A DNA stretch of 64,000 bases, taken from NCBI GenBank assembly GCA_000091205.1, contig AP006502.2. One strand, 5' to 3'. The notes below the pieces were generated by a model. The model was given only the letters and a program-made list of their open reading frames with translations. It was not told the origin of the DNA and did not search any database. Each line of letters starts with the position of its first letter. Position 1 is the stretch's first letter. This document shows positions 1 to 57,157 of this stretch, one piece after another. The DNA comes from Cyanidioschyzon merolae (taxonomy: Eukaryota). The position numbers and the translations under genes were made by a program.

Positions 1-69
1 AGGTGGTGTCCTCAGCGAGTGAACGAGGCCAACGCTTTTCAGGTATGGCAACTACGGATCTTTCGTGTT

Positions 70-12985: not shown

Positions 12986-13245
12986 ACGTTTATATGAACT
13001 CGCCGAGAATCGCCTTGATTCCAGTGACGGGACGCTTTCCAGCTGCAAAGAATCGAAACAGCGACTTTTAAAAGATAACCGATAATTAAAAAGTTCCAAA
13101 CGGATGTGTAAACCCCTCATGTTGGAATTCGAATATCGAAAGTGCATATCTGACATCTCGTTCAGAAAAGCATCGAGAGACACCACCGCCTCTCGAAAGT
13201 CGAACGACGTCGCCGGCAGTGTACAGTAGTGGCAAGTGACCCGCC

Positions 13246-14748
13246 CTAGACGAAACGTCTCCGACTGACGTGCAGACGCCTGCCCGTCTTTTTGGACCGG
13301 CCATCTACTACTGCTTCCATCTTCTTCTCATATAATTCAACTTTGAGAGGTTGTCCAATAAAGTTTTCTCTTGTCAGCTCTGGAGGTCTCTTCTCCAGCA
13401 CCGCACATCTCCTTATATTGATTGCGGCGATAAAATCTCGGTTCACAAACTCCATACGTTTCTTGCCATCATTCCTTGTACTCACCAGTGCAAGCAATCC
13501 TCGAACATTCTCCCTCCTTTCCATTTCCTCTTCCGTCAGCGGCCCGTACTTTTTTATGTTCCCAGGGCTCTATTGGCAATTTTCTATCTCCACTCTCTGA
13601 AGTACGCACCCCAGTTCATGGTGTGTATACGAGGTTCGAAACTCATCAACAGGTATCGTGGCGAAACGCCTTGCGCATTCCCTGTACGTTCTTGTCGTTG
13701 GAGTTGGCGTACAACCTTTTTTAGGCGCCAAGCACCCTGCCCCGTACGCTACTACGAGCCTTTGAGTCTTGTCCTCTTTGACGGCACTCAACTAATTGAA
13801 AAAGTTGGCAAACGCCCGCTGCCTCCCACCGTATAGATTCATTCGCAAACGAGCCCACCAGGGCTTGGTATACTCCTCCCACAGCGCATCCCAATGGGCA
13901 ACACGAACTTGCATGAATTTCAGAAAAGCTTCAAAGTCCGCTCCGCGGCTCGTCACCTCGCTCAAAGCTTCCAGGTGATCCTTCATTCCTGCATTCCGTA
14001 TCTCAATTTTCTTCCTCGCATTCGTTATACCCGATTCTCGATAATATATCGCTCTCGAGAGCCTCATCAGACGCATGTCTTTCTGACGTAAGTTGCCGTC
14101 AGCACCATCTTCCGCACGCTTCGGTGCTGCGATGGTTATGATATTCGTATTCCCGGGGCCCGCGCCAACGACAAGGTCGTTATCCTGCACTTTCTGTGTA
14201 TCAGGGCCCGCCTTCTTGTTTTCTTCATGCTTCGCCGCGCCAACCATAAAGGCGTTATCCTGCACCTCCTGCATCACAGGATCCGCTTCCTTCCCATCTT
14301 CATCCTTCGTCACGTCAACGACAAGGTCGTTATCCGGCATCATCTGCGTCGCATGATCCTCCTCTTTGTTTTCTTCATGCTTCGCCGCGTCAACGACAAG
14401 GTCGTCATCCTGCACTTCCAGTGTGGCAGGTTCGGCGTCCTTCTCATCTTCATGCTTCGCCGAGGGCGGGACCAAACGATCTGCCTTCAATCGCCGATTG
14501 TGTGCACACAAGTCTACTCCATCGGTTTCGATCATCCCAGTGAATACATTTTGTTTGCTCTTTTTGAGACGTTTGAAATCGAAGATATTCTTCCAGTGCG
14601 TCTCCCGGTTTTCGCCAGTGAAGTCCTCCCTGCGAACATTGAACTCCGGACAGATCTCCCTCATGATGCCATGAGGGACGCCAGAGTCGATAGTCACAAA
14701 ATGTGACTTGGTGTTGCATAATGGAACAACGTCGAAGCGCTTCCCCAT
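13246..14748 (-). pseudogene. TnpB/Fanzor-like RuvC-family nuclease ORF, single frame interrupted by two in-frame TAG stops (at 13792-13794 and 13570-13572)
   Basis: Three listed ORFs (13792..14748, 13570..13791, 13246..13524) are in one frame. C-terminus KKRMEFVNRDFIAAINIRRCAVL matches the RuvC-III motif (N-R/A-D-x-NAAxNI) of TnpB/Cas12/Fanzor; upstream IPVDEFRTSYTHHELGC resembles the pre-zinc-finger TS motif; FVTIDSG is a candidate RuvC-I. Confidence 0.6.
14160..14440. repeat. about 4.5 tandem copies of a ~63-bp (21-codon) acidic repeat inside the TnpB-like ORF
   Basis: Peptide repeats [83 protein letters not shown]. Confidence 0.6.
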
Positions 14749-14840
14749 TAGGAGAGCCTTCCGTCTCTCCCATTCTTCATTTTTTCCTCACTCAGCTTTA
14801 TTTCCGCCTTGCGTTCGAGCTCTCGGTCCAGAAACGCGAA

Positions 14841-15383
14841 CTAACATAGGATGAGGCGATAGTATCTTTCCTTACCTTTTTTCAACTTTGATATCTTGTC
14901 TGTTGGATTCACCAGCCCCATGACTGCACGGTCTTCTTGTATAAGCGCACGGATTACAGAAGCTTCATTCGTGCTCTCTTTTGACGCCTTCTTGTCGACA
15001 AATTCGACCTCATCTTCATGCTTGCGATCGTTCGTGATGCCATTGATAATCGCCCATTTTCCTTTGCAAGAGATGCCCGAGTAGAGTGCAAACACGGCGC
15101 GTATCATGAAACGTTCGAGGTTCATTGTCAAATAGTTCTTCAGATTCGTGAGGTACTTCATCGCCCCATAGTCGTAAATATCCCGGTCACACTTGTATCG
15201 AGTACCGTTGAAGCTGTAAAAGGGATGTTTTTCGTGCAAGGCATGCACTAGCACATTTTCCCCCTGCGCTTCCGCTGTACCAAGTATCAGGTGAGGAATA
15301 AAGGTCTTATCGAAAAACACGTCCGGAATCTCGACCGTTTCCATGTACGTCACGTCTTTGTAGATCTCCCTCGCCAAATGCAT
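14841..15383 (-). CDS. hypothetical 180-aa ORF directly upstream of the TnpB-like ORF; possibly its frameshifted N-terminal (WED/REC-like) region
   Basis: ATG at 15383; ends 93 nt before the ATG of the 13792..14748 ORF in a different frame; no recognisable motifs. Confidence 0.3.
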   Translation of the reverse strand: MHLAREIYKDVTYMETVEIPDVFFDKTFIPHLILGTAEAQGENVLVHALHEKHPFYSFNGTRYKCDRDIYDYGAMKYLTNLKNYLTMNLERFMIRAVFALYSGISCKGKWAIINGITNDRKHEDEVEFVDKKASKESTNEASVIRALIQEDRAVMGLVNPTDKISKLKKGKERYYRLILC

Positions 15384-17253
15384 CAGTCCCGACGACGCCT
15401 TGACGATACTCTTAGAGTACGAGTCGACACGTTATTTTTATAGCATCTCGCAACTTTTCCCTGTAGGGATCCTTGATATGTTCAAGAAAACAGGTCTTCA
15501 CCACCATCTCGTCGTAGAGTTGTCTTCCCCGCGCAGCCTTCGACTTAGGGCATCCCCCTTTCGGTTCTTCTCCTCTTCCATTTCTTCTGGACTCGGCACT
15601 GTTCTTTGTTTATTTTTATGGCAGCTGGAGACCCTGAGCCTCCAAGATCGTGGACTTGCTTTTTCATAACTTTCCTTTTTTTAGTTTTTTTTTGAAAAAG
15701 AACACTCTTTGAACGCTTCTGTTATATTCTGCGAATAAACACTCGAGTGTTTTTACTTGAGGTTTGAAACACGACTGAGATGAAACAATATATTTTGTTA
15801 CGATTCCAATGCAAATACAAGTCTTACGTTAGAACAAAACGCTACTGATTACGATCGCGTTTCCCTTCAACGGCGACATGCGCGTCGCGTCAGTTGACTG
15901 CCTGATCTCCTTGGTGCGCTCACCGAGCGGGATGCAAACTAGTCACAAACTTTTTATCAAAGATCAACTATCTTAAAAGCCCCACACACCACGCCCGCCT
16001 AAGTGGTCCAATTTTTCCGGAGAAGCTCTGAAAGTGGGTTAACACGAATGTTTGGGCGACGAGGAAGGAAGCCCACTCCAGGGACCTTGACCGCAACGAA
16101 CGGAGGGGCAGAGGCAGTAGCAGAGAATGATGACGAGAATTCGAAGTAGTTATCCGCTGCTCTCGAAACAAGGCTGCAGGTTCGGGCGCAAATCCTGGAT
16201 CCATCCTTGAATTCGGGCTCAGTTTTATGGTCTATCTTGGTTTCTACCTCAACTTTGGAAACAATCTCGGCGGATACTTTGGAAGACGGCTGACAGCATG
16301 TTCGCCGTCGAAGCTGACATAAGCGACTTGCCCGCCTATGTGTTTGGGGAGCGGATACGAAACCGCTGAAAGGGTGGTTTGTAGACTGTTCCCAATGGTT
16401 TAGGGTGGCTTCACGCGTCCGGCAAGATAAAGGTCGCATTTGAATCGACCTTGACTAATGTACTTTTGATTCTATGCTAGCGCTGCGGCAGATACGCAAT
16501 GAACGACTGGAATGCAGGAGGCAATGGTGGCTTGTGCGCTCACATACCCCGTGGAGGGTGCATCTAAATCGACCTTCTAGTCGGAAGGTCCAGCGAATCG
16601 GATACGCACACTGGCACATTGCGCTTTCTGCGCTTACCCACTGTGGTGGGTGTCAAGCACAAACCCGCATTGCCAACCGACAACAACGCATTCCATGCAT
16701 GATCACGAAGGAGAGAGGCGGCTCCCAGAATGTATCCTAACAGCCAAGTTTCTCCAGCGTGTCGTGCAGCGAAGGCAAGCTTGCATCCGCAGACTGTCCA
16801 AGCACAAACTGACGACGAGATCCGATTCTACGTCGGGTGAAGCACACCTCGAGCCGACGCCCTCTGTGGTATAGAAAAGCTGTTCCAGCTCCATGAACTA
16901 TCTGCTCCAGCATTTAAGGTGCAAAGGCGGACACGGAAAGGCAGGTAGTAGGCACACAAAATATGACGTGTGAAACGACCAGAATATCCGAGAATAAAGT
17001 CTGGGTAATGGAGCTTGGAGGCAGGGCGTTTGATGGATACTTTACAGTGCACTGAAAAAACACAAGAAAAGTAAGAAGAAAAATGTACATAATCGGAGAA
17101 CGCTGGCCTAAGTAAACGTTTTGTCGATGAAAAAAATACGATACAACGCCAACTGGGCATACGGTTGTATCTCGGGGACGGAGACTTTCGGCGCAGATTC
17201 CCTTGCGAAAAAGCACCGCTCTCCGTACTTTTCCGGAAACTCTGGTTGGACAG

Positions 17254-21992: not shown

Positions 21993-22199
21993 TCGCAGTG
22001 CTTTCGATAGGATATTGCTGGCCGAAAAAGCGCCTCCGTTGCAGAAAATGTGCCATCCCGCGCAATCTCGCACCGGATCGCGCTCGATCGTTGAAGCATG
22101 CTGGTGATTCACGTCAATGATGTGCCACATTCAGGTGCATCTCATTGTATGCTTTTTCGCAACTTTTAGCAGATACGGTCAAAGTGCGTCCACTTGAAG

Positions 22200-22650
22200 C
22201 AATAAAAAATCCAAGGGAAAGGTATGGACATGCAATTCGAGGATCCTGGAGGCTCGGTGTCGCCGAGTACCGGAGAAGAAACGGAAAAAACGTCTTCTCG
22301 CTGATCATCGAGCGAAGAAGAGCAAGCGAAGAAGAAACGGGAGATAGGCGAGAAAAAATGCGTTTGCCCGACTGAACGATAATGAGACGCTAGTGGCACT
22401 GGGGACATGAGTCCGAGCAATACTTGCAATGGTGCGTTCCACCAGAGGCAACAAACGCATGGAATTCGTGAACCGAGACTTGAATGCCGCCATCCATATC
22501 AGACGAGGAGTGGTGCTGAAGACGAGACTCGCACAGCTGATGTAATCCAGCTCTGGGGCGCAGCTTCTCAGGCTCGAAGTGTGCCCGGATCAATCGAATC
22601 CGATCGCAGGCGACCAGTCAGAAAAGGCTGGGAGTCGTTTGTAAGTGGAA
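22200..22650 (+). mobile_element. 5'-truncated TnpB/Fanzor-like copy (C-terminal RuvC-III region only), decayed
   Basis: Frame-2 translation ...AMVRSTRGNKRMEFVNRDLNAAIHIRRGVVLKTRLAQLM*; nucleotide homology to 46720..47185 begins at aaaatccaagggaa(a/g)ggtatgga. Confidence 0.55.
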
Positions 22651-23837
22651 AAGTGTTTACCCTCCGTGATCGTGGGACGTTTTCCGTTCTACTGGCGATA
22701 TGTGGCAGCTCTGACTGACATCTTCTTGACTCAAAAGGGTCTGTATGCGTTGATGGCGTTGGAGCAGGCGCGCTCGCCTGGTATTTGATATCCGGGGGAT
22801 CGAGTGACGAATATCTCTGGGGGGAAGCATGCCTGTTGGCTGGTGAGCCCCTTGAAGCGATGCTGCGGAACGACAGACGATCTCCCGGATGCCGATATCC
22901 AACGCGCAACTGGGCATCCCTTGTGGCTGTGAACGATTAAGCGCCCAAAAAATTTGAATGAATCCAGGATGCAATCTTTGATGCATGGGGTAGTGATATG
23001 GACGCTATGTACATCGGAGCTAGACCAAGGACTAGGGATTGTGCAGGTCGCGAAGATGCCTTGTAGAGCTGCTGAGTCGTTCCGGTGCTGGTGGTCTACA
23101 CAGAGATGCACGCCGTGCAGGACCTGAGCGCAAGCACCCGAAGCACATTTCTTCTACCTTATTAGTCGTATGGAACCTGCTTCCAATGGTGTTACGGAAT
23201 CCATGGACAGGACCTGTTCCCGGATGTGGCATTCGCCGGCTATTGGGAGAAGCGCTGCAGCGCTGCGCTTTGGGCGCGTTGCTGCGTTCTGCATCGTGCA
23301 GCGGCATTTGGGCGGGCTTCGAGCATGCTCCGACTTCCGCTGCACGAAACTCACTTGTCAAGGGTTGCCATAATTTTTTTAGTACTTCCTTGCATCTGTT
23401 ACGTCACGGTGAGTCTCGACGCAAACGTTGCCGGTGCGTCTTCCAGCCGTTGGAAGCGGCTTCGGGCTTGCCGATCGTCCGAAACGACTCCCGCCCGACA
23501 AGTCGTTTGAAGTTTTGCTCGCAAACCAATTCGCCAGAGCGATCCGTTGCTGGTTTCAGCTCGCAGAACGAGCCAGCGGATAGCGACTTGGTCGACAAGT
23601 GGCCTCGTTTTGAGCGTACCAGCGTTGGCTTTGACACACCCGTCCATGCACGTGCCATTCGCTTTCTCACGATGAAAATCTATGTACTCGTCGTTGACGC
23701 GGCCATAGACCATCATCTGGACTGCGCGTTGGTTCGGGCGTATCACTGTGGAGAAGCCTTCAAGATACACCCGATGGCGATTTTATTGCTTTTCCTACTT
23801 GGAAACTGCGAGACCAAGCGATACGACCTTTGTTCAT

Positions 23838-25007: not shown

Positions 25008-25699
25008 ATAACACCCGGAAATCCATGGACGATGCGCGAGCCGAGATTCTCAACGAGAGCGCAGCTCGAGGGGTCGCCGCCTGCGCTCGAGCGAAGCGCT
25101 CAAAAAGCTGTACGCAAATACGCAGTTCATGAGGCGTTCTTTAGTGGGCCTTGATGCGGACTGTCAAGGTATTCGGTTCCCTATTTGTTTCGTGTGCAGG
25201 GCCAATGTACATGATTTTTTCTAAAACGACTGTTGCTCGCTTTTCTGGTCAGAGCTTCCATATGCTGCTTACACTGGAGAAGCGAGCACTTTTGTAACCA
25301 GGTTCAACTGGAGCGACCCGCTCGCCGTGAACCTGGAAATATCTCCAGCTTTAGCCTAGTACTTTTCGGCGGTTGAATGGCATGGTTTCTGTATACTTTC
25401 GCTGAAGTTAAAGAGGCGGACTGCTTACCCATGCTTTGTCTGCAATAACAAGTTGGATCTTTTCAGGAGTTTCGCGCTGGAATCCATCTGCTTCTTTCCG
25501 TATTCGGCATGCCGCCACATAACCGGAGGCAACGTCATGTCGACCGTTTTAGAGTTTGTGTAAAAGAAGTCGCATGAGATCGCAACCATGGATGTGGTTC
25601 CATTGGAACCGGCAGAGAAGATACCGAGGTGTCTCAGCGACGCGCATACGATCCACACGTCGATATCGTCGGTGAAACAAACAATGCCCCACGACCATG

Positions 25700-26640
25700 G
25701 AGGGTCAATATATGAACATTCACAGGCGCTTCCCAGCCTTTTTCACGGTTGGCCTGCTATCGGTTTCAATTTCTCACTGCGCACTTGGAGCTTGTGAGGC
25801 TGTACCACGAAGTTAGATCGCGTCGACTCCTCGAGTCTCGTCTTCAGCACCCTACATCTCCTGATTTTGATGGAAATGTTGAAGTCTCGGTTTTCGAACT
25901 CCAAGCTTGTCTTGCCGCTGGTTCTACTTGCCAATGCATGGTGTCCTCGAATACGTGCCCTCGGTGCCATTTGCTGTTCTGTCAGCTCTCCGTGCTTTTC
26001 TATCGTCGAAGCGCTCCGCTGCCTTCTCTTCTATCCCAAACCTCTGAAGTGTAAACCACAGCTCATCCCGTATTTGTTTCTAAAATGAACCCACTTCCTA
26101 GTGCCCTTTGGTGTGGACCTTCCCTGAGGGGGACACGCTTGCGGCACAAAGGCGGAATAGACACCGTCCTGGTCGCGTGCCGAAAGCTTCTGTGAGTCGC
26201 CCAGTGGCGCGATCATTACGTTTCAGGATACAGAACGCTCCTTCGGTGACGTTGAACCACGGAGAGTATGGAGCAATGGAAAGCAACTCTACCTCCCAAT
26301 AGCATCGGCAAAAGCTTGCACGCAATAAAAATGGTGAAATGGCGCGTTGTCGTCTGGAAAGACGTCTCCAGACGTGGGGAGAAGGGTCTTCAATGATTCG
26401 GCAAAGTGGGTGTTGTTGTATGAGCCTTCCCTACGAGCGAAACTGAGGCCGTCAAATATATCCACTGCAGCTGGAGCCGATGATGATGCCTTAGCTCTTT
26501 TCGAGTTCGATCGTACATACAACGGACCCCCTGCTCCGCGAGTACCCATATACGCCCCGACCGTATCGCTCGGACGAAGTCTCACTGACTGGCAAAACAA
26601 ACTGACGTCACTTTGCTTCATATCGATCGTGACATTCCAG
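25700..26640 (-). mobile_element. 5'-truncated TnpB/Fanzor-like copy, decayed (frameshifts between three ORF pieces)
   Basis: ORFs 26289..26621 (..VGAYMGTRGAGGPLY..), 26098..26325 (..SPWFNVTEGAF..) and 25743..25970 (..SLEFENRDFNISIKIRRCRVLKTRLEESTRSNF..) are collinear with the 46240..47185 copy. Confidence 0.55.
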
Positions 26641-27827
26641 GAATTCTCCAGTCGTAATTTCGGTGGAAGATAGCCGTGATTGAACTAGGACGCTTTTGTG
26701 CCAGGCTCCTAGAGTTTACAGGTCCACACGGACAAGCGGTTGAATAACAGAGACGCCCATGATGGCTTCTATACTCGCTTCAGCTTTCCATAAGCTCATC
26801 AACGGTTCGTTTTCTATCATTGACCTCAATCGCGCTTTGAGAATATCGGTTTCTGGCGCGGAACGCATAGCCTTCTTCTTGTCGGTGTTCCTCGAGTATC
26901 TGATTACTATGGTATGACGGACCTGAAGCAGGAATGCAGTCCTCCTTCCATTGTCCAGTAAAGAGCAAATATCCAATAGGCAAGTGCTCTACGATCTATA
27001 CGATATACTGCTTTGTGATTTCGATCTCCTGCTGGAGACTGCGAAAAAGCATGTGATGCCATGCAGCGGGGCGACGGAACAGAGTTGAGTTGGAAGACTA
27101 TTCGATGGACGGGCGTTCAATCTCCAAAGGCTTTTTGCTGCATATCCCAGCAGCTAGCTCATAGACTTGGATCTGTATCGAAGTTTTGGAGGGTTTCACG
27201 GAGAACGCTTGAACGCTGCAGGCACAGAGCGGGCATAGAACTCCACGAGAGAGACTATCGAGACGAGGTGTGATAAATCGCGTAGCGCCGCTCTTCCACA
27301 ACATCGGCAATATCATTTTGCAACACAGCGAACGGCAATTGAGGCAGTTTTTTGTGTCAGTCGTGTATCTTCCATGTAAAGCCTTTGCAGGATATCGGTT
27401 TGCCATGAGTCGCTAGCACGGGGCGTTGTCCACGACGGCCGAGCTTGACTTGAGGCGCGCCGGCTCTCGTTTGCTGGCCCTTGATTAATACTGAAGCGCG
27501 GTCAACTCGCAATCATCGTGCAAGCATAAAATCCACCCGTGAATTGATAGCGCTGTTCCTGAATTGAGATATTTTCCGAACGTTTCATAAAATGGACAGC
27601 GACGAATTCATGTTGCATCAATATGGGCTTACGGGTGAAAAAGATTTTTTAGGATTCTTTCTCGTCTCTTTGAGATATGGCGCCTTCGACGCTTTGCGGC
27701 TGGAATTCGTTCGGTCGTCGGAATCTGGATGATTTGCGACCTCATTGAGAGGATTCGTTAAGGAACCAAAATCATCATCCAATGCATACGTACAATCCTC
27801 TACTCTTCCTCTTTCGTACCGCGTAGC

Positions 27828-28502: not shown

Positions 28503-28565
28503 GTTTGAAGGACATACGGGAACACCTGACCATGCCATAGTGTCGCTGCTGTAAAGGATGCACCA

Positions 28566-34503: not shown

Positions 34504-35312
34504 TGCGCCGCCAACAGTGATACGGACGCCTCAACCCGACGCCCTCAGTGGCATGGCAAAACCGTTCTGTCTCCGTGCAGTACCTGCTTCAGCGGGATAA
34601 GCGCTACGGCGAGAGCTCAAAACAGCTACTCGGCACACGATAGAACATACGAAACGACCAGTATACCCGAGAGGAAGTATGGGTTATAGAACTTGAAGGT
34701 AGGCGCTTCATCATTAACGCTTTCCCGAAATCCAGTATCCGTTCCGAATTCTGGAATCCAAGGTCAATCTAAACATTTTGTCATCTGAAAAACTTCAGTT
34801 ATGCGGAACGCTCCGCGTATTGGACGCCCTGCTCGCAAGCATCTCCAGTGGAGCTCTGGCCGCCTTGTCTGCCGCTAGCATCTTTTGTGCTACTGGGGGA
34901 TCACTGCTCCGACACAATGATAAGGTGGCATGGAAAATGGCCTAGTTCATTCAGTAACCCGCTTACGAGCGAGCAAGATTTGCGCTGATTGGCTAGTGCA
35001 CCCAGATGCACGCAACCGACGGCATGGAATTGGGTCAAGTCTGTTCAAGAATTCGTTCACGAACGAGTAACATTTTTGCTGTCGGGGTATCGTGCCTGAG
35101 TGCACGCATCCTGCACCATGAACGTGAGATCAGGTGAATGGAACAGCCCTGAACGTGTCGTATTCTTTAGTGTCATTTGCAGTGAAGGAAACGGCGCTGG
35201 AACAAAGCAAAAATGACGCCAAAGCGGGGCATCGCCGTCGGATCGGTTGCGCACACTAGACATCGCTGCGTCCGGGTTTGCTGGACTCGTAAGCGACCGA
35301 TTACTTCAGTTT

Positions 35313-38342: not shown

Positions 38343-39057
38343 ATGCTCAAATCACGCATGCTTCAAGTTTTGGTCTTCCTGTTTCGAGGCAACTCGTGGG
38401 CGCAACAATTCGAGCAGAGAGATTGGTAATGAGCGAAATACGAAATCGGTTCTGAACGACTTGGTCACAATCCCACGCAAAAAGTTCACTGAACTCCCCA
38501 AGACAACCATTCGGTTCCATGCGAGAAGCAAACCCCCGGCTCTTTGCGGCAATAAACGGAACGGCATTGCGCAACACCATTGCCCATGCCCTGTGATAGA
38601 CTACCAGAAGCACCCGCCCATTCTGTTCAGACAAAAATGGGTTTCGTACTTGGAATGCAGTTATGGTTCACATGGCTTCCAGTGGAGCGTTTGTCAAAGA
38701 TTTCCACGACGGAAGTATAGGGCGCATCGCATTTCTCGACTTGATTTCCAGCCTTTCTTTTCCCCATGGTACTTGGATCATCATGGACGAGCTCGCTTCC
38801 CAGAAATCCTCCTTCGGGCCGCAAAGCTAACACTGGCGCGTCCAGCGGACAGCTTCCTCACCGAGAAGATCCCCCAGAGGAACACGGTGTGCGTAAGGCA
38901 TGGTACCGGGCGCGGAAACCGAGGAGGGCATGGCAACGTGCCTTCTGCACCCGATAGAAGCACGTACCGAGTTACGAAGCACGCGTTTGTCGTGAAACAG
39001 GACAGCTCTCGGAGAAGGGTGTGTGTTGGACATATAGGAACAAACGACTACAGCTAA
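38343..39057 (+). pseudogene. R-unit ORF-A homolog; conserved ATG (MLKSRML...) is followed by a stop after 28 codons and the remaining 261-codon frame (38272..39057) has no ATG
   Basis: N-terminus MLKSRMLQVLVFLFRGNSWAQQFEQRDW* aligns with R2 MLQSRFFHVSISGFKAARAPSNRQRRIEQEKY; downstream frame ...ARPADSFLTEKIPQRNTVCVRHGTGRGNRGGHGN aligns with R2 ...VADSVRAECVAPKEPVIVGCGTGRLNRGEHHGS. Confidence 0.5.
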
Positions 39058-39262
39058 ACTTCACTTGTAAAAACCTCGCACCTCGGCTGTACACAAACGA
39101 GACGATGAAAACGACAAGGGATGCATGAATCGCTTCTTTAGCCTGTGGATGCATTGCGCAAGCAATAGCTGGAAACAGCGAAATCAATACTTGAACGCTG
39201 CGATCAATATCCTCCGATGACCTACAAGAGAGCAGGACGAAAAGAGAGTCCAGCGTTTCCAA
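38972..39262 (-). CDS. R-unit ORF-B homolog segment (..LSCRSSEDIDRSVQVLISLFPAIACAMHPQAKEAIHAS..); listed start is TTG, no ATG
   Basis: Protein-level and synonymous-site conservation with the R2 and D2 ORF-B segments. Confidence 0.4.
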   Translation of the reverse strand: METLDSLFVLLSCRSSEDIDRSVQVLISLFPAIACAMHPQAKEAIHASLVVFIVSFVYSRGARFLQVKFSCSRLFLYVQHTPFSESCPVSRQTRAS

Positions 39263-43344: not shown

Positions 43345-43998
43345 ATGCTTACGTTACACACTCTTCAGGTTTCCGATCAAGAATTTTCAAGGCAATTCAT
43401 GGGCAGAACAAATCGCGCTGCTGGGTTGGTGAATAAGGATACTCGATGTTGTAATTTGACGACTCGCTCACAAGCTCATGTCGAAAGCGCACAGAGCTTG
43501 TCGGGTCAAGTAATCTATTCCATTCGAAAAACGAATCTTCTCCTCTCCTTAAGCATCCATACAGCTGCATTCTACACCAGCGTGGTCTCCCGCACGAGAT
43601 ATGCTCCCTGAGGCTCTCGTTTCTTTGTGTTGGATGGAAAGCGGGGCCTTCAGCTCGGAATTGCGTCGTTGAACTTATCGCTTCCAGTAAGGTGTATAAC
43701 ACCTTTTCGCACGGAGGAACCGTAGACGAATCGACGTTTCTCGATCTGATCTGCAGCCTGGATTTTGCCTCCGGCACTCGTCTCATCATGGACAACACCG
43801 TGTCCCAGAAACCGTCTATCGAAAGGAAGACTGCTTGTCCGAGGGTGCAGCGGACAGCGCACTCGCCGAGCAAAACGCCCAGAACAATGCAGTGATCGTT
43901 GGGTACTTTATGGGCCGCGCGAACGGGGAAGGGCATTTAGGCTCGCCTTCCGTACTCCTTAGGCGCATGGAACGAGCGATGAGGCATGTGTTCACGTG
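43345..43998 (+). pseudogene. R-unit ORF-A homolog with at least two frameshifts (pieces 43345..43611, 43692..43895, and a +1 frame to 43998)
   Basis: MLTLHTLQVSDQEFSRQFMGRTNRAAG...NLLLSLSIHTAAF aligns with the R2 N-terminus; ESTFLDLICSLDF and (shifted) AADSALAEQNAQNNAVIVGYFMGRANGEGHLGS align with the R2 body. Confidence 0.5.
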
Positions 43999-44285: not shown

Positions 44286-44942
44286 AGAAAAAGCCTGCAG
44301 ATGCTGACTTGTGCGGAATCACGGGAAGCGTTCCAAACGTTTCAGTGTGTATGCCCGAGTTAGCTTTGCGCAGTCGTTCCACTGAATACGAATATGGGTA
44401 CATGCGTTCCCAACTCAATGCAGCAATCCTGTACAAAGAAAAGATCCCATCGAGCCGATGCCCTCTGTGGAATGGCAAAGCTGTTCTGTTTTTGTGCTGC
44501 ACCCGCTCCAGCTGTTTAGGCGCTGTTGCGGATGCTCTCGGCAGGCGCTAGGCACACGATAGAACGAATGAAACGACCAGTATTTCCGAGAAGAAGTATG
44601 GGTCATGTAACTTGGAAGCAGCATATGGATCGATGGATGCCTCGCCGCGCACCGAAACAAAAAACCAAAAAAAAGAAAGGAAAAGAAGAGTCGCTCATTC
44701 GGAGAACGCTGGAATATGGAAACGCCGTGTCAATTAAAAAAATAGAACAAAATTACCACACCGTGTCCAGGATCGCGAAGCGCAGGCCGACGTCCGTCGA
44801 ACGCGGCGCCTACGTGCCACGCGTATTTCGCATGGAAACTGTTGTTGTAGCGTCGCACCCCGAAGCTCACGAGAGCGTGCTTTCTTAACTTGGCCCTAGC
44901 ACGTGAGCTGAAGCATACTCCCCCAACGGCCAGACAAGTTTT

Positions 44943-45284: not shown

Positions 45285-46239
45285 GGAAAATGTTTCACGA
45301 AGGTCTCCAAAACGACCATCAAGTGAAATACACGTGGCGGTGGGGTTACTCCACACAGCTTCCGTACCAGCGTGAGCAGCGGTGTCTGGGCTCTTGGCTG
45401 CTTGCATCAGTGCGCTCGCAGAATACTGATCTTCGGGGAGCGCGAAGCTCCAGGGCAGAACGCGACCTGTGCGCTTCACGGTGGAAGCGGTTTGCCTCTA
45501 TGGTTTGGAAGAAAATAGGTTCGATTGAACCCAATGGTCATGTCCTGCGGAGCGAGCAGGACCAATCGAGGACAGAGAATGTTGCGACGCAGGTAGTGCT
45601 GGATGCGTGGCAAAACATTCAGAGGCAACGGTGGCAATATACCGCCTGCGCTACTGATATGCGTGTAAAAGGTAAGATGAATGGACTGGACAAAAGAAAT
45701 CGCAGCCTCGCCCAGACCTTAGGATAATTGCCGTATTCAATGCTGTGACACCCCCGATGCGTGCCATCGAATGCTTTTTTGTCAGTGTAGAGCAGGAGAT
45801 GGAAATCAAGATGCAATACACCGTAGAGATCGTAGGCGATTTCCCTGCAGGATAGATATTCTTAACTGAACAGTGCAAGGAGGACTGCATTAATCCGTCA
45901 GGTCAGTCATACCGAAATACACAGATAATCGACGAACGCTGACAGAAACAAATATATGCGCTCCACGCTAATAACAGATATTCTCAAAGCGTGCTTGCGG
46001 TCCTTGGTAGTAAACGGACCATTGATCACCTCACGAAGAGCAATAGCGACGATAGCGGACACATCGGCGTCTCTGTTTCTCAGCAGTTGGATCGTCCGGT
46101 CCCGCAAACAATGGGGTACAGTCGCAAAATTCCTAGTTCAAGCACCGCTATCTTTCACTGAAATCGCAATGGCAGAATTCCTAGAAGCTTGCGATCGGTA
46201 TGAAGCACAGATAAGTCGGTTTGTTTTTTTTTCAGTCGA

Positions 46240-47185
46240 TGAGACTTCCCTCTGACAAAACGGTCTCAGCGCATATGGGTACTCGCGGAGCAGGAAGCCC
46301 CCTGTATGCACGATGGAAATCGAGAAGAACGAGGACATCTTCCTCTGTTCTAACTGCAGGGAATTCATCTGGCGGCCTCCGTTTCGCTCGTAGAGAGGGC
46401 TCATCCAACAGCATCGTTTTCGTAGCATCATTCAAGACTTTTCCCCTTACGTCTAATGACTTCCATCTATCGGACAACGGAAAATTTCACCGTTCTCTGT
46501 GCGTTGGAACTTTTGCCGACGCTAACGGGGTAGAGCTGCTTTTCATTCCTGTGTAGGCCCCGTGGTTCAACTCCATCGAAGGAGCGTTTTCTATCGTGAA
46601 ACTTAACGATCGCGTCGCTGGACAAGTCCCTACGGCTTCCAGCACACTGGGGCACTTATTGACTTTCTAGCTCTGCGAATTTCCATACCTAAAGGCATAA
46701 AGAGCAGCTTTCATGCGAAGAATTACAAAATCCAAGGGAAGGGTATGGAGATGGAAATCGAGGATCCTGGAGGCCCGCCATCCTCGGCTGCCGGAAAAGA
46801 ACGAATAGAATCCTCTTCTCGCGAAAAGCCGAACGAAGAAGAGCCAGTGACGAAGAAGAAGATGGGAAATGGGTAAGGACAGTGGTTCGCCCGATGGTAC
46901 GATGACGAGACTGTTGTGACACAGGGAGCACGAGTACTAGTAATCCTTGCAATAATGTGTTCAACCAGCGGCGGGAAACGCATGGAGTTCTTGAACCGAG
47001 ACTTCAACGCCGCCATTCATATCAGAAGATGTGCGGTGCTCAAGACAAGATCCGCGGAGCTGACACGACCCAACTTCCTGGGGCAGTCTCTCAGGCTCGA
47101 AGTGCACGGTGAAAAACTGCAACCGATAGCAGGGGAACGGTCAGAAACGGCTGGGAGGCGCCTGTGAGTTGGTATATATATGCAG
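46240..47185 (+). mobile_element. 5'-truncated TnpB/Fanzor-like copy, decayed
   Basis: ORF 46221..46556 (..VSAHMGTRGAGSPLY..), frame-shifted ..PWFNSIEGAFSIVKLNDR.., then ORF 46916..47167 ..CSTSGGKRMEFLNRDFNAAIHIRRCAVLKTRSAELTRPNFLGQSLRLEVHGEKLQPIAG. Confidence 0.55.
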
Positions 47186-47287
47186 CCTATGGCAGCGAAA
47201 CGTTCTCGCGCCATGAACCGCAGGCAGGATCTGGTGACTTGCATTTCGAGTTTCTTCTGCGCATGACTGGGACGTGCAAGGACCATT

Positions 47288-48901
47288 TTACATATGAGGG
47301 TGTGCAGGTTCCATTTTCCTAGGCGCTGATTTGATAACATCATCCACGCGGAGGATCATTTCAGCTGCTTCTGTTGCGGATGAAAGCACGTGTGCTTTCA
47401 GTCGGAAAGACTCCACGACACCTAAAGCTCGGGCATCGGCGATAGAACCCGAGAGGATATCCAAACCAGCCGAAGTGTTGCCCTGAGCGTGCGCAGCTCG
47501 AAGCTCCGCCACGAGACTCGTCGCATCGAGACCCGCGTTTTCCGCGATAAGGCCTGGAAGACTGCGGAGAGCGCGAGCAAATGCCTCCGCCGCCAGCGCG
47601 GCTTTGCCGCCCATACGTGCCGCACACGCATCCACTGCATTCGCCATGAGTGCCTCCGAGCAACCGGCTCCCAAAACTAGTCGGGAGTCTACGACGAGTT
47701 GGCTCAGTACACAGAGGGCATCGTGCAACGAACGCTCAGCTTCATCGAGAATCTGCTGGTTCGCACCCCGGATGACGATCGAGCAAGCTTCTGGCGCCCG
47801 ACATCCCTGAAAATGCAGTACAGCGTCGTCCCCGATCATGATCTCTTCGATAACGGCACATTCACCGAGCCGAATGGCCCCCGGACTATCGAAGGTACTG
47901 ACGATTTCACCGCCGGTCACAAGCGCTAGGCGCTCAATGCCATCGAAATCTGCGTGTTCAATACTGTTGATACCATTATCCGTGAAAAATTGCTCCGGAC
48001 GATTGTAAATGAGTTGACGATTGACAAAAACATTGCATCCGTAACCGAGAATACGACGACATTTCTCTATCATCTTTTCCTGCTCCGCTTGTTCTATTTC
48101 CGCAACACGTGCAATTGACTCTGTCCGAACACGAGCACCATAGATTTTGATCTTATCCGTATCCATCGGTGTGTTGGCAATCAAAATTTTTGCATTTTCG
48201 ACACGTTTCTTCTGGCCTACGCCGAAGCGCTTCTCCAGAATGAAGCCTTCCGCCAGGAATGACTCATGAAGGGCACCGCCGGGTTTTTTAATGATTTTAA
48301 TATGATCCAGGTTCGTGCTACCTTGCAAGCGGATCACAGCATCTACCGCGATCTTCGCAAAGAGCTCCCTGCACTGCGACAGAACTTTCGAGGACAGCGC
48401 CGTGCGCGCAACGTTCATAAGCGCCTCGTAGCCAGCCGGAGTGTCTTTCGCGGGTAGGGCCATGGCGGCTTCTTCGAGTGCTTTCAGCGCCTCTCGATGG
48501 GCAGCACGGTATCCGGCTATGATCAACTGAGGGTGCAAGCGCCTTTCGAGGAGCTGTTCCGCTTCACGCAACAGCTCACCCGCTAAACAGCAAACCGAGG
48601 TGGTGCCGTCCCCGATCTCATCGTCCTGCACCAGAGCAATATCAACGAGGATCTTCACCGCTGGGTTATCAACGTACACAGACTTTAGGATTGTTGCACC
48701 GTCATTCGTAACACTGACCTCCCCAGAAGGAGAGAGGAGAATCTTATCCATCCCACGGGGCCCTAGCGTCGTTTTCAGCAAGTCCGTAATAGCCAGAGCA
48801 CCAGTGAGCAACGATAGGCGCGCGTTCTCTCCCTTCTCTTCGGTAGAACTCGACTTGAGGACTTTCTGGAGTCCAGTCGGTGGTAGCCTCAACTGCGTCA
48901 T
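47288..48901 (-). CDS. CCT2: T-complex protein 1 subunit beta (chaperonin CCT2)
   Basis: [30 protein letters not shown]...[55 protein letters not shown] matches CCT beta; ATG verified. Confidence 0.9.
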
Positions 48902-52471: not shown

Positions 52472-52511
52472 GTTTTCTGGCTTGTGGAATCCATTCAACA
52501 AAGACGTTTGG

Positions 52512-54025
52512 ACTCAGAAACGTCCAATGGTGGAACTCCGTTGTCATCTACCGATTGCCGACGAAAACCCTTCCCAGTGTATAAATACGGTGCTCCCTCG
52601 TTTCTGGATTGCTGAAACCGACCTCACCAATGACTTCATCCAGGAAATCATCCAATATCCTGGCTCATGGCCACAGATGTTTCTCGACGAACGTCGATAG
52701 CGTTGCAGCACAACGCCAGTACCGCGTACGAAACGATTTGCCTGAAAGTTCGGTCGGCAGAAAGTCGCAGGACGCTCCGCAAGCACCAGATATTACCGAA
52801 TGCCGATCGAGTCGCTCAAGTCCTAGTACACCGTGTGCTTGTGTACATTGCGGGGTGTGGCGTATCACAGCAAAGCAGGCGCTCAGCTTGGATTGCCTCG
52901 CCATCTGGTGTTCGGTCTGCTTGCCATACGCCATGCTGCGCATCCGGCACGGAGTTGCGCTGCTCTTGTTCTCTACCAGTTTCAGCAAGCACCCGTGCTC
53001 GTGATGTGTGGATGTCGTCCTGAGCGCATCGATGGGAGTGTTCCAGGGTCCATTCTCGCACACGTTGGACGCCCTCGTTGAAGGGGCAGGAATGCAGGTG
53101 CTGTTCGCTACCGGACGTGTATCGCGCTGGACTCGCGCCAAACGACCCGACTTGTCAGCCGTTTCCATTGCCGCCCTGTAAACGAGGAACCTCCGGTGAG
53201 ACGCGTAAATGCACTTCGTAAAGTCGCTCGAGTGCTTCGCGCTTGCTCACAAACACCAGCTGCAGCTCGCCAAGGAGCCCGCGCACCACACTACACATGT
53301 GTCTCCGTGCATCTCGTGGATCTACGTGTAACGTACGCGCACGATACCCAGTAGACGCGGGACGAGCAAGAACGGTCGGCTTCGGCGGCGGACGCTGCGT
53401 CGCTCTGGAGGGATCAGCTCAGGGTCGCTCTCGCAGGTGTCTTGCCTGCGAGCGGCGGAGTCCCTCTTTAGTGAGTACCCGTGTATCGGCGTATCAGTTC
53501 TCTCCCGAGTGAGGTCTTGTCGAGTGCGAGAAACATCCGTTCGTGGTGTAGCACAGGCTGGCCATTCCGGCACGGAATCCTCAGCATATGGATCAATGCG
53601 GGACGGTCTCGAGTAGAGGCATGCGTTTCTCGTTGTCCAACCGCGTCTCTTCATCAGCGTTTGCATCAGCCATGCGAAAGCTGTGCTTTCTTTGGTCTCT
53701 TCTATGGTATTTCTCGGAAACGTGTGTTATGAAATGAATCGACGAGGAGGTAGTCGTTCAGCTAGAAATTCAAAAATTCTGTTTTCGGTGCTCGACATTC
53801 AACATAAGGCGTAGGCGGTGTGATGCCCATGGACCGTCTGCGTGCAGGACACTTGACTTGCAGAGGTAAACCCATTTTCGGAAGCGAAAGCGGCAGAATC
53901 AAGTCTTTCCGCGAACATTCTCTAGTCGGCAGCACATATTTCTTTTATTGCATACTTGCGAGAAAAACTAGCGAATAGGCGGGTTGGTACAAGTGCTCCA
54001 GAATTCACTGCTCCATGTGTAACCA
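52512..54025 (+). repeat. 1.5-kb direct repeat, copy A (~99.6% identical to copy B)
   Basis: Identity begins at actcag(a/t)aacgtccaatggtggaactccg and ends at ...ccatgtgtaacca; only a handful of single-base differences seen by eye (cct/ctt, gta/ata, gac/ggc, gga/gaa). Confidence 0.9.
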
Positions 54026-55394
54026 ATTCTTTTCTGATGACAAAACGTTTACATCGACCATGGATCCGAGGATTCGGAAAGTATAATGGCTTTCGGGAAA
54101 GCGTCCATCATGAAGCATCTAGCTTCAAGTTCTATCACCCATACATGCTCTCTGATATACTGGTCGTTTCGTATGTTCTATAGTGCGCCGACTAGCTGTT
54201 TTGAGCACCCGCCGTAGCGCTTATATACCGCTGAAGCAGGTGCTGCACGGAGACAGAACGGCTTTGGCATACCGCTGAGGGCGTCGGCTCGAGGCGTGGT
54301 TCATCGGACACGGAGTCGGAGTACTTAATCATTCTAGGAGCCTGGAAGCTGCGCGGAGAGACGCACTGCCTGCGGCGGCACGGTGCGATATACTGGGCGT
54401 CCACTGCGACCAGGGCGACGCCCAGACGCAGCATACACGCTCCTAGTCCCAGATTGAATTGCATTGCGGACGAGTAGCTCAGGTTTCTTTAAAGAACCCG
54501 CCACTGAAGGAAGCATGAAGCACTAGCTAGCCCCGAAGACTCGTCCGGCTCGCGGGACCTTCCGCCTAGAAGGTAAACTTTCCAAGATACTGAAACTTTT
54601 CCCCATTTCAACGCTTACAATTAAGATCAAACGAAACTGTTATCGAGTTGCTAGTCAGTGCATAGTTTCTGTTTTTTTTTCGCATCGACGTCGATGCTCG
54701 GTGGATCAGGGCCTAGTTCCATTCAGCGGCAGCGACGGCGTGCCAGAATCCTGATGGAAGTGCTTTAAGAGGCTGCTTGTTTGAAGGTTAGCCTATTTGC
54801 GCTCGGGTCGCTGCTCTTTCTATATTGTCCGGGAAGAGTTCTTCGACAAGCATTGACCTTAGACGGCGAGAAGCAGCGCTTAGAGTCACAGCAAAGCTGC
54901 TTTCTGCGAAAACTGCGCGCAGGACAAGCGGTGACGCTTCCTTCGAGAGCGGCGCTCTTGGTTTTGGTGCGACAGGAACGGCTCGCAGTTCGGTAGACTT
55001 GGGTTTGGGTGGAGCTCGGAGATTTAAGGTGGTGCGCGAGATTGATAAGCGTAAACGAGTGGCGCGTTCCGCAACGTGCGATTCTTCGTGGCACCGAGGA
55101 GAACGCACGCATCCTCTAGCTTGAGCGTCACGCATTTTGTTTTGCTTACGTTGAGGCCTTCATAGATTGGTGGCGTCTTTGACAAGATCCGGGAATTTTT
55201 CGTTGCCCAGGGGCGAGATTTTTGAGACCAGGGGGTATCCCAGCCAAGTTACCGGAACTGCACCGCACTCGTGGCCGGTGTTCAACGAACGGCGATTTTG
55301 AGAGTCTTCTGAGCACGTATCCAGCGGATATAGTAGCGTTCACGAGACACGTACGTGCTTACCCGTGAACCCCTGTCGCCTCTCGAAGGGCATC

Positions 55395-57080
55395 ATGGAG
55401 CATTCCGGCAGCCGGGCCCCGTTGGATCCTGAAGGCGCGGGTGCTCGAACACAGGACTCTTTTCGCGTCTTCTACAGCCAAGATGATGTGAATGGAGGCA
55501 AGCTGTACATAGGCGAAAAGCTCAAGTCCAAAGTTGTGCGTAAGCTTCACTCCCTGTCCATTGAGGAAGGAAACGCGCGAATAGCGGAGTCTTCAGACAG
55601 TGCATTGGAGGAAGGCACGTCCGATGCCTCTCGCGAGGGCTCTTTTGCGCCCTCTCCACGTGCGTCTTCTGCAAGAGCAGCTGAGACTGTAGAGTGCCCT
55701 AAGGTACTATCAGGAGAGAGCGCTCGGGATGTCGCCGCCCACAAGGACGAGCCAATGGTGTCGATAGCGGGGCCTCGTGACCACGCCTCTGCGGAAGCGA
55801 AATCGATCGATAACAGGACTTGGGGCGCAGCGCGGAGCTCAAAAGATCTCTCGTTAGATGATCCGATCAGACCCGTTGTATCTGCACATCCAGTGGAAGC
55901 GCATTCGGATCGACATACGTTTGCGTTCGAGAACTTGAGCAGTCGCCCGCACATCAGAGAGTCTCGTCCAAAGTTCATCTCGAAGTACGTACTTGGGGCT
56001 CGCCTTGGCGAGGGCGCCTACGCCAAAGTCAAGGAGGCCATGGATACGACCACGCTTAGAATCGTTGCTTGCAAAATTGTTGACAAACGCTTCCTACGCA
56101 AAGTGCGCGGTGGCCTCGAAAACGTCCGACGTGAGATCGCCATTATGCGGTCGCTGGATCATCCAAACATTGTGCGCTTGCTAGATGTTATTGATGGTGA
56201 GGATTCGATGAAACTCTACATATTCATGGAGCTCAGCAACGGATGCACTGTTCAGGAGCTCATGGAGCGTGCACCTCAAAAGCGGCTACCACCTGGACAA
56301 GCCCAGTCTTTTTTCGCGCAACTGATCGAAGGACTTGCATATATTCATTCTCGGAATATCGTGCACCGAGACATCAAACCCTCGAATCTTATGCTTGCCA
56401 CGGATGGTGTTCTGAAAATCGCGGACTTTGGTGTAGCCGAATTTCTCGACAAATTCGATGCCGAGGGGCGTATCACGAGGACCGTTGGCTCGCCTGCATT
56501 CCAGGCACCAGAGATTGCGCGGGGTAATGGCATGTTTCTGGGGCGAAAAGTCGACGCCTGGGCTGCCGGCGTCACGCTCTACATGATGCTTACTGGCGAG
56601 GCGCCTTTCAAAGGATCCAATCAGTTTGAACTCTTCCGCAATATAGGCCGGGGCGAGTTTCATATGCCATCTGATTTGATCGACGAGGAATGTCAGGATC
56701 TCTTGCGGAGACTCATGGAAGTGAATCCCGAAGTCCGGAGCACCGTCGACGACCTTCGTGATCACAACTGGTTGCGAAAACGCTACGACGATGAGCATGC
56801 ATGGATTCCGATTCCGCGACGTCATCCCAAAATCCTCGACATGGTCTCTCGCCTGTACGAAGACGATCCCGAGATGTCGACTCAGAGCACGAGTCCCATC
56901 GAGTCAGACGCCGAGAAGAGCAGCGTGCAACGAGCGCAAAGACCCACATCCATCGTCACCACCCAACTTGGTGATCGTCGGAGCATTACGAATGAGGGAG
57001 CAGCAGAACCTACTCTGGAACAGGGCGAATCCGGATCTCCTGGAGAGAGCTCATGGCGCAAACGATGTACTTTAATGTAG
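55395..57080 (+). CDS. Ser/Thr protein kinase, LKB1/STK11-like catalytic domain with long low-complexity N-terminal region
   Basis: YVLGARLGEGAYAKVKE...HRDIKPSNLML...KIADFGVAEFL...GSPAFQAPEIARG...KVDAWAAGVTLYMMLTGEAPFKGSNQFELFRNIGRGEF...DLLRRLMEVNPEVRSTVDDLRDHNWLRK parallels LKB1 subdomains VI-XI; listed start 55365 is GTG, first ATG 55395. Confidence 0.8.
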   Translation: MEHSGSRAPLDPEGAGARTQDSFRVFYSQDDVNGGKLYIGEKLKSKVVRKLHSLSIEEGNARIAESSDSALEEGTSDASREGSFAPSPRASSARAAETVECPKVLSGESARDVAAHKDEPMVSIAGPRDHASAEAKSIDNRTWGAARSSKDLSLDDPIRPVVSAHPVEAHSDRHTFAFENLSSRPHIRESRPKFISKYVLGARLGEGAYAKVKEAMDTTTLRIVACKIVDKRFLRKVRGGLENVRREIAIMRSLDHPNIVRLLDVIDGEDSMKLYIFMELSNGCTVQELMERAPQKRLPPGQAQSFFAQLIEGLAYIHSRNIVHRDIKPSNLMLATDGVLKIADFGVAEFLDKFDAEGRITRTVGSPAFQAPEIARGNGMFLGRKVDAWAAGVTLYMMLTGEAPFKGSNQFELFRNIGRGEFHMPSDLIDEECQDLLRRLMEVNPEVRSTVDDLRDHNWLRKRYDDEHAWIPIPRRHPKILDMVSRLYEDDPEMSTQSTSPIESDAEKSSVQRAQRPTSIVTTQLGDRRSITNEGAAEPTLEQGESGSPGESSWRKRCTLM

Positions 57081-57157
57081 GATGGGCGCGGTGTTCAGGA
57101 CGGGAAACGAATACTGCGCCAAAAGCGCCATGCTGCAAACCGACGGGGGTCGGTGTA

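Follow-up and report, generated by a model that had tools for sequence, protein, structure and literature searches.

How did several frameshifted pieces of a TnpB/Fanzor-like gene, all ending in the same segment, come to lie within one stretch of the Cyanidioschyzon merolae genome? The window analysed here (the whole stretch of DNA, 64,000 nt), which we take to be part of chromosome 20 of C. merolae 10D, is gene-dense with a GC content of about 53%, and its CCT-beta, CCT-theta and oxidoreductase genes are exact matches to the C. merolae 10D entries BAM83286, BAM83283 and BAM83272. Besides a long copy on the minus strand (copy A), it holds three frameshifted Fanzor-like repeats, namely copy B on the minus strand and copies C and D on the plus strand. 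Scanning the 64-kb window against Rfam and for tRNA genes returned no Rfam family and no tRNA, and a Pfam search of the raw open reading frames of copies A and C gave zero hits.

Repeated copies and the motif common to B and C

A blastn search of positions 45700-47400 against the whole window aligned copy C to copy B with 73% identity over 876 nt (E~1e-137; B 27071-26201, plus 25923-25708) and to copy D with 74% identity over 458 nt (E=6e-74; D 22196-22646); the match to the long copy A was short (13462-13344). The repeats are genuine and well above chance expectation, and the initial annotation was right in recognizing frameshifted Fanzor-like copies with a common RuvC-III end, as B, C and D all terminate in the segment ..KRMEF(L/V)NRDFNAAI(H/N)IRRC... 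When searched by tblastn with the long copy, or with an HMM of full-length relatives with the filters off, their Fanzor homology was confined to the last ~65-100 codons. Copy C had been described as starting at position 46240; the homology between B and C begins instead at C 45752 and B 27071, about 490-500 bp upstream, and with more copies it shifts to C ~45726.

The supposed starting point of the copies was the motif V(S/G)A(H/Y)MGTRGAG, present as VSAHMGTRGAGSPLY in C (~46266-46310) and as VGAYMGTRGAGGPLY in B, which had been aligned to the RuvC-II segment VVAYGAG of the long copy. The motif-bearing frame of copy C reads ..FFSVDETSL..VSAHMGTRGAGSPLY..LSDNGKFH..PWFNSIEGAFSIVK.., and this stretch, joined across one frameshift, matched the Pfam family DDE_3 (PF13358) with E=2e-10 and 41.1 bits (gathering cut-off 28.6); copy B, homologous to C, reached 17.7 bits, under that cut-off. 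A metagenome contig encodes an intact DDE_3 transposase of 310 aa, to which the transposase stretch of C was 36% identical (BLASTP, E=3e-31). By tblastn, residues 21-267 of the intact transposase of the relative L007, which scores 89 bits on DDE_3 and also carries HTH_23, aligned to C 45857-46601, and intact transposases aligned to B 26976-26179. A homology search with the DDE_3 pseudogene itself gave only 3 matches; the relatives with a transposase were located via the Fanzor side. The D-D-E context of the transposase is VDETS / DN / NSIEG, and the motif is assigned, from its sequence, to the '..YG.S.KG..' segment found in Tc1/mariner/IS630-type transposases after their first catalytic D.

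Given these DDE_3 matches, the alignment of the motif to VVAYGAG is a false positive. The idea that B, C and D are 5'-truncated TnpB/Fanzor copies starting from the RuvC-II VVAYGAG, spread as an IS200/IS605-like non-autonomous derivative, does build on a motif common to B and C and on a genuine RuvC-III homology. It is nevertheless refuted by the position of that motif inside a DDE_3 pseudogene and by the silence of the Fanzor family HMM, which even with --max gave no match there; moreover, the motif lies ~700 nt from RuvC-III in C versus ~300 nt for VVAYGAG in the long copy, homology continues ~500 bp further upstream, the Fanzor junctions of B and C differ and no TnpA accompanies them. We give this idea practically no credence.

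Anatomy of a Fanzor1 subfamily

The Fanzor part of these copies has a published counterpart, CMe-1A of C. merolae, described as ~150 copies about 80% identical to a 3169-bp consensus encoding a 734-aa Fanzor1 protein (Bao & Jurka 2013, PMC3627910). In that report its 5' 635 bp correspond to TE-N2_CMe, no TIRs were seen, the TSD was left undetermined and the class was given as unknown. Mapping of the CMe-1A consensus, taken from the supplement of PMC3627910, onto copies A-D assigns all four to the lineage of this Fanzor1 family, judging by sequence; their earlier attribution to TnpB/Fanzor thus holds, with the copies being Fanzor1-derived. The likeness extends to the genome and the gene, the retained segments being 72-87% identical to the consensus, and the window contains a typical member in the long copy A as well as solo TE-N2_CMe copies. 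Unlike the CMe-1A of PMC3627910, B and C carry a DDE_3 transposase gene where the consensus has positions 1-~853, and B, C and D show subfamily indels and large internal deletions undescribed there.

The long copy used as a query retrieved 139 metagenome proteins, the intact ones being of 595-731 aa and having the motifs GxDPG, VDEFRT and NRDxNAAxNI (GADPG / VDEFRTS / NRDFNAA in the CMe-1 consensus); the RuvC residues D344, E508 and D556 (P0117 numbering) were invariant in 15 relatives. An AlphaFold model of the intact relative P0117 (pLDDT 79, pTM 0.74) matched the structures of PpFz, SpuFz and GtFz over the full length (E 1.6e-16 to 2e-13, TM 0.58-0.67), with far lower scores against Cas12f and other Cas12 proteins, and on this model the CMe-1 family is predicted to have the Fanzor1 fold (WED-REC-RuvC). 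It was the fold search alone that found these Fanzors, as the family sequence profile found none among PDB sequences; a search with the family profile collected 3219 cluster representatives at E<=1e-3. The retrieved relatives bear the precomputed Pfam label PF26935 (DUF8286), which shows that this Pfam entry marks Fanzor1 proteins, and one relative, P0308, gave a weak match to PF07282. One described Fanzor motif is a C4 zinc finger placed after the E of RuvC-II and before the RD of RuvC-III (Bao & Jurka 2013, PMC3627910); Cys and His residues in this interval were not conserved here, the CMe-1 consensus having HHELGC...EKC and P0117 a single Cys.

Copy C as a whole (~45726-47232, plus strand) is made up of the DDE_3 pseudogene, the N-terminal ~56 codons of Fanzor1, an internal deletion of ~588 codons and the last ~82 codons. 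A degenerate, non-coding 5' terminal region (45726..45810), starting where homology begins among 16 transposase-linked loci, precedes the DDE_3 (Tc1/mariner/IS630-type) transposase pseudogene with its frameshifts and stops (45811..46700; PF13358, tblastn and BLASTP). A remnant of the CMe-1 5'UTR follows (46701..46744, consensus ~853-905; aligned by MAFFT to D, L005 and the CMe-1A consensus) and carries, ahead of the ATG, a subfamily-specific 7-nt insertion, TCCAAGG. The N-terminal Fanzor1 piece (46745..46919, MEMEIEDPGGP...YDDETVV; blastn to consensus 895-966 and protein-start alignment) starts at the true start codon (consensus MEKEVEDPGGP) and has one internal stop.

At the deletion junction of copy C, between 46919 and 46920 on the plus strand, ..YDDETVV passes straight to ..GARVLVILAIMCSTSGGKRMEFLNRDF.. 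(consensus ..RAKVRGLLALVSTTSDGKKRMEFVNRDF..); consensus ~1074 to ~2838, or ~588 codons, is missing, and codon ~56 is joined to ~644. The C-terminal piece (46920..47167, consensus ~2838-3083; blastn to consensus 2849-3083) contains the RuvC-III sequence NRDFNAAIHI (HMM positions 548-611, E=6e-17) and a premature stop common to B, C and D. In the blastn map, 46734-46805 corresponds to consensus 895-966 (82%) and 46933-47164 to consensus 2849-3083 (72%). The 3' terminal region of the B/C/D subfamily (47168..47232; 3'-end alignment of 23 loci) has the family end ...CGTTCCACTG. Copy C ends ~55 bp away from the CCT-beta stop codon (47288).

Copy B (25665..27098, minus strand) is also a composite, with another internal deletion than C and a junction that is the same in at least seven loci. 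Its DDE_3 pseudogene (~26179-26976) is followed by a 5'UTR remnant as in C and then, at ~26068, by the Fanzor ATG fused to consensus 2737 (..GGG joined directly to ATGAGCTGTGG..); in the Fanzor 3' part (25708-26066), positions 26066-25792 match consensus 2737-3013 with 75% identity by blastn. The Fanzor breakpoint that B and C were said to have in common is therefore at consensus 2737 in B and at ~2838 in C and D. RuvC-II, at consensus nt ~2705, is upstream of both 3' breakpoints and so was lost in the B-type as well as the C-type deletion. As RuvC-I is deleted in all three copies and the RuvC-III RD motif is the sole RuvC remnant, B, C and D would encode no nuclease.

Copy D (22150..22700, plus strand; blastn to the consensus and alignments), previously thought to keep only the last ~150 codons, is a mini-Fanzor without a transposase, in which ~56 N-terminal codons are fused to C-terminal codons at the same junction as in C. 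Along with this junction, D and the contig L005 have the TCCAAGG insertion, a 3-nt deletion and the premature stop of C. On its 5' side D has a CMe-1A-type 5'UTR back to consensus 837, and by blastn 22150-22288 corresponds to consensus 837-969 and 22410-22528 to 2849-2970 (76-78%). This combination of a C-type deletion with a CMe-1A-type 5' region requires that subfamilies recombined or that an intermediate went unsampled.

The long copy A (13187..17043, minus strand) is a near full-length CMe-1A (consensus 64-3169, 83-87% by blastn) with a TE-N2_CMe-type 5' part and without a transposase; it has one frameshift, two in-frame stops, a D->G change in RuvC-I and a 75-bp unit present three times. 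Consensus mapping also placed solo TE-N2-like pieces at 54036-54681, 34529-34785, 44450-44616 and 63273-63823. Consensus 1-~853 gives way to the transposase pseudogene in B, C, L005 and L006, and neither B and C, with their DDE_3 gene, nor D, starting from consensus 837, has the 5' 635 bp of TE-N2_CMe, which indicates that B, C and D form a separate subfamily of the CMe-1 lineage.

The N- and C-terminal Fanzor parts of copy C are in one frame with one stop, and the junction is conserved over many loci, as might be expected of a selected or domesticated mini-protein of ~140 aa composed of the Fanzor N-terminus and the RuvC-III tail. Against such a product stand the internal stop in C, the early stops in D and other checked copies (D and L024 by eye), a pairwise identity among copies of only ~67-75%, and substitutions between B and C that are spread equally over the three codon positions, with no bias. 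We consider a mini-protein extremely improbable. The even spread over codon positions implies that B and C decay neutrally; all the copies in the window are dead sequence in neutral decay, and it is likely that the window contains no functional element today.

Shared deletion junctions and the layout of the parent element

Metagenome contigs were scanned with a RuvC-III pattern, yielding at least 120 stretches, mostly from hot-spring Cyanidioschyzon populations, and both the consensus and DDE_3 proteins served to map the loci, which were de-duplicated by their 3' flank. The resulting counts are lower bounds that depend on the pattern, and orthologous loci of diverged strains in these mixed populations may count twice. 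Full CMe-1A elements occupied at least 16 loci and CMe-1A copies starting from consensus ~640-740 at least 13. DDE_3 was linked to a full-length Fanzor in at least one locus (L105), to a B-type junction in at least seven (B included) and to a C-type junction in at least seven (C included), and a C-type junction without a transposase was present in at least seven (D included).

Among the matches listed, the B-type junction was identical in 7/7 B-type loci and the C-type junction in 11/11 alignable sequences. The C-type alignment comprised seven transposase-linked loci, with C, and three transposase-less loci, with D; a further transposase-linked locus did not enter the alignment, and for four transposase-less loci the C-type assignment comes from consensus coordinates alone. 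The transposase-less C-type loci started, among the matches listed, at consensus 1, 660, 786, 787, 826, 832 and 837. In the consensus, the two breakpoints of the C type each carry GAAAG, and those of the B type ATG. Taken together, these sequence comparisons support the descent of the copies from propagated internal-deletion derivatives, not from independent decay. To that extent the initial annotation survives, with junctions that are the same in at least 11 and at least seven loci; its breakpoints were misplaced. It had named heterogeneous 5' ends, with no shared breakpoint, as the sign of random fragments, and deletion junctions are indeed shared, though elsewhere than it had put them.

The layout of the parent can be read from intact relatives. 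A DDE_3 gene is found directly upstream, on the same strand, of a 595-731-aa Fanzor1 in L007, L008, L010-L013 and L015, the virus-like L014 being the only such contig without an upstream DDE_3 gene. L010-L013 have in common a 3.64-kb unit with 98-99.8% identity and differing flanks, bounded by imperfect TIRs of ~31 nt, TATACTCTGTATACTAAATAATGGAACACC ... GGTGTTCCACAATTCATTTTCATGAGTATA, ending in TA; these TIRs are located at the exact homology boundaries in L010-L013, L015 and L007, and in L010-L013 the TA at both ends is inseparable from the TIR. In L010-L013 the unit is a Fanzor1-bearing, mariner-like element that has recently been mobile. Within the Cyanidioschyzon lineage, L105 has DDE_3 followed by consensus 868-3169, with degenerate ORFs. 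Two independent deletions from one transposase-5'UTR-Fanzor junction also imply a parent with the transposase first and the full Fanzor1 second. As the Cyanidioschyzon contigs yielded no intact transposase or Fanzor of the B/C/D subfamily, mobilization by a DDE_3 transposase is a matter of inference.

Our preferred explanation, to which we assign a probability of about 0.8, is that B and C are relics of a composite cut-and-paste transposon with DDE_3 and Fanzor1 genes, the Fanzor core of which was deleted and the derivatives of which spread. The parent would have carried on one strand two genes, a DDE_3 transposase of the Tc1/mariner/IS630 superfamily and then the CMe-1 Fanzor1 nuclease. Two separate internal deletions took the Fanzor core, both removing RuvC-I and RuvC-II and leaving RuvC-III and the 3' end; to judge from GAAAG and ATG at the breakpoints, they may have arisen through microhomology-mediated or abortive gap repair. 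A DDE transposase, encoded by the deleted elements themselves or acting in trans, would then have spread them, and transposition would in that case not have needed the nuclease core. Since B and C kept the transposase gene, they would have been, at their formation, Fanzor-deleted yet potentially autonomous, and the term 'non-autonomous' applied to them earlier does not fit.

Another history can be imagined, in which an unrelated DDE_3 transposon was inserted once by, or into, a Fanzor fragment and the resulting block was copied by segmental duplication; B and C are on one chromosome, 20 kb apart, and neither TIR nor TSD was detected on the copies in the window. Duplication of a block is, however, difficult to reconcile with at least 14 transposase-linked loci with unrelated flanks, two of which (L005 and L006) are flanked by genes matching those of other C. 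merolae chromosomes with 90% identity or more. A chance neighbourhood of the two genes is likewise opposed by the distant relatives, where intact genes occur with equal order, orientation and spacing within one TIR pair, and by the two independent deletions from a single transposase-5'UTR-Fanzor junction. We regard this history as quite improbable and retain the composite transposon.

Element ends, the 3' region and what the copies mean

The 5' end of the transposase-linked family reads (C/T)A followed by GTCTTTCAACTCAATTTTGTTCCAC, a consensus that sets the 5' end of C near 45726 and that of B near 27098; the two bases before this end were TA or CA in 6/14 Cyanidioschyzon loci. On the other side, the B/C/D subfamily apparently stops at ..CGTTCCACTG, ~37 nt before the end of the CMe-1A consensus. 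Inverted-repeat scans of B and C gave no terminal repeats, comparison of the window copies with the TIR of the relatives gave no significant similarity (p~0.5-0.9, with p~0.9 for the 5' region of C), and no TSD, TA duplication or TAM was readable at the decayed ends of the window copies. Inspection by eye showed only a 4-nt CAGT/ACTG end and, further in, a TGTTCCAC box. An equation of the 3' ends of B and D with the 3' TIR of the relatives was rejected, as shuffling gave p=0.5-0.8 and the bases concerned are ordinary consensus ~3100-3150. Two TIR-like matches, one just beyond copy A (p=0.0045) and one in the CCT-beta C-terminus beside copy C (p=0.035), do not reliably hold up after correction for 8 tests.

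The 3' ~330 nt were always retained, possibly because they hold the cis-acting right end together with, by analogy with other Fanzors, a guide-RNA scaffold. In characterised Fanzors the source of the guide RNA is the 3' end, adjacent to the right end (PMC10530073). An addition to the composite-transposon explanation, compatible with it, is that the derivatives spread as guide-RNA satellites, their 3' ~330 nt encoding a scaffold used in trans by the full-length CMe-1 Fanzor. It would account for the last ~82-120 codons and the 3' end being kept in every derivative, and it has parallels in fRNA produced from the ORF 3' end or UTR and in solo guide-RNA copies of Chlamydomonas (PMC10530073); two hairpins can also be drawn in the consensus, paired in 70% of cells versus 38-52% in slid controls. 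On the other hand, for the 3' ends of 18 decayed copies RNAalifold predicted no consensus structure and covariation was 0.225 versus 0.220 expected from shuffling, so the two hairpins, spotted by eye, were set aside; besides, the right end is required in cis regardless, and 3' retention therefore calls for no RNA function. We judge the satellite addition unlikely. A broader proposition is that a mariner-like DDE_3 transposon founded CMe-1, that its coreless derivatives multiplied to at least a dozen loci, that the nuclease was dispensable and that the 3' end was a guide-RNA/right-end module serviceable in trans; this remains tentative, and we lean against it.

The composite transposon proposed here has known counterparts. 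Autonomous Mariner/Tc1 elements encoding a transposase and Fanzor1, PUl-1 and PGv-1, have been described (PMC3627910), as have associations of Fanzor1c with Mariner/Tc1 (Jiang et al. 2023, PMC10530073). Compared by layout, they are alike in that Fanzor1 follows the transposase gene on one strand, and the active relatives L010-L013 resemble them in their ~31-bp TIRs ending in TA; in contrast, the copies in the window are dead sequence stripped of the nuclease core, and neither a TIR nor a TSD can be recognised on them. With Ds derived from Ac, deleted P/mariner elements and MITE precursors they share a precise junction in multiple loci, microhomology at the consensus breakpoints and the keeping of the termini. 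Unlike Ds-type derivatives, however, B and C lost the passenger nuclease and kept the transposase gene, D and its kin being transposase-less. The IS200/IS605 elements, to whose class the copies had been likened, have in TnpB a homologue of the nuclease, and their derivatives also keep the 3' side with the guide RNA and right end. That class does not apply: the partner is a DDE transposase, the search for subterminal hairpins at the ends found none, and neither TnpA (Y1) nor an IS607 serine recombinase lies beside any copy in the window or in the scanned loci, at least 120 in number.

In summary, the CMe-1 family and the Mariner-Fanzor1 kind of element were already published, and what is new is small: the link to a transposase and the two deletion subfamilies. 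Our analysis also corrects a plausible domain misassignment, in which a transposase motif had been taken for RuvC-II. The physical linkage of the CMe-1 Fanzor lineage to a DDE_3 transposase offers a class for a family that had been left unclassified. Furthermore, the derivatives that lost the Fanzor core and kept the transposase lend a little natural evidence to the view that TnpB/Fanzor nucleases serve transposon retention rather than transposition itself; if the broader proposition given above is true, the coreless derivatives would represent a natural deletion experiment in which the RNA-guided nuclease was dispensable for transposition.

Fanzor1 elements in metagenomes and TIR-like stretches in the window

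A 3.64-kb element encoding an intact DDE_3 transposase (300-401 aa) and an intact 699-aa Fanzor1 was found in four metagenomes at 98-99.8% identity, with flanks that differ, on contig loci L010 (851-4496), L011 (734-4379), L012 (752-4340) and L013 (440-4055); comparable units lie at loci L007 (~1187-4628) and L015. Its ends are terminal inverted repeats (TIRs) of about 31 nt, terminating in TA. The element looks like a mariner-type Fanzor1 carrier, active now or until recently, in a eukaryote.

When the 3' TIR of these relatives was compared with the window, similar stretches were detected just 3' of the near full-length CMe-1A copy (long copy A) at 13162-13199 (p=0.0045) and within the C-terminal codons of the CCT-beta gene at 47288-47318, minus strand (p=0.035), both values being shuffle-test results uncorrected for the 8 comparisons made. 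Beside long copy A the similarity begins precisely where the CMe-1A consensus ends. This may be due to chance, or the published consensus may end before an old TIR.

Variation in long copy A and neighboring repeats

Long copy A contains three copies of a 75-bp unit (14235-14462), which corresponds to consensus 2117-2196 and codes for a segment immediately upstream of RuvC-I. As this unit is present one to five times in other CMe-1A copies (loci L032, L086, L087 and L121), it constitutes an in-frame variable-number tandem repeat within the Fanzor coding region. The RuvC-I aspartate of long copy A has been lost (~14110-14150; VGAGPGNT vs GADPGNT in the consensus), and the copy is further damaged by one frameshift and two in-frame stops.

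A 1.1-kb repeat family has its main copies at 11937-13057 (-), 27685-28801 (+) and 30467-31535 (+), with 91-92% identity, and weaker pieces at 6756-7238, 38723-39101 and 43732-43870. Inside these repeats lies a 224-aa ORF (27828-28502 and 30545-31219) without a Pfam match. One repeat copy sits just beyond the 3' end of long copy A, another ~600 bp 5' of copy B, which bears an internally deleted Fanzor1; the phosphomannomutase gene (29338-30123) sits between two of the copies. Self-blast of the window also revealed two tandem arrays, one at 3315-3867 with about 6 copies of a ~85-bp unit and one at 645-849 with 2 copies of a ~102-bp unit.

Fanzor fragments around the protein-kinase gene

The protein-kinase gene at 55365-57080 is bracketed by a pair of 1517-bp repeats (52509-54025 and 57154-58670; 99.6% identity), each carrying on the minus strand a 167-aa ORF (52665-53168 and 57310-57813). 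This ORF is a far more diverged Fanzor C-terminal fragment, matching positions 463-556 and 569-615 of the profile of full-length relatives. Its identity is 44% to the relative P0102 vs only ~31% to long copy A, which places it in a second Fanzor1 lineage. A full TE-N2_CMe (54036-54681) adjoins one of the 1517-bp repeats.

Annotation and virus-like context of the relatives

For P0102, P0001, P0304 and other relatives the sole precomputed label was Pfam PF26935 (DUF8286); since these proteins are Fanzor1 nucleases by fold, the label represents an annotation gap. P0308, a 591-aa relative on locus L014 (contig k141_476248, ERZ27263785), showed a weak match to PF07282 (Cas12f1-like_TNB). On L014 no DDE_3 gene was found upstream of P0308, and its neighbors are virus-like genes (P9_TM, RNA_pol_L). 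This context fits with Fanzor1 proteins of this clade being carried in large DNA viruses too.
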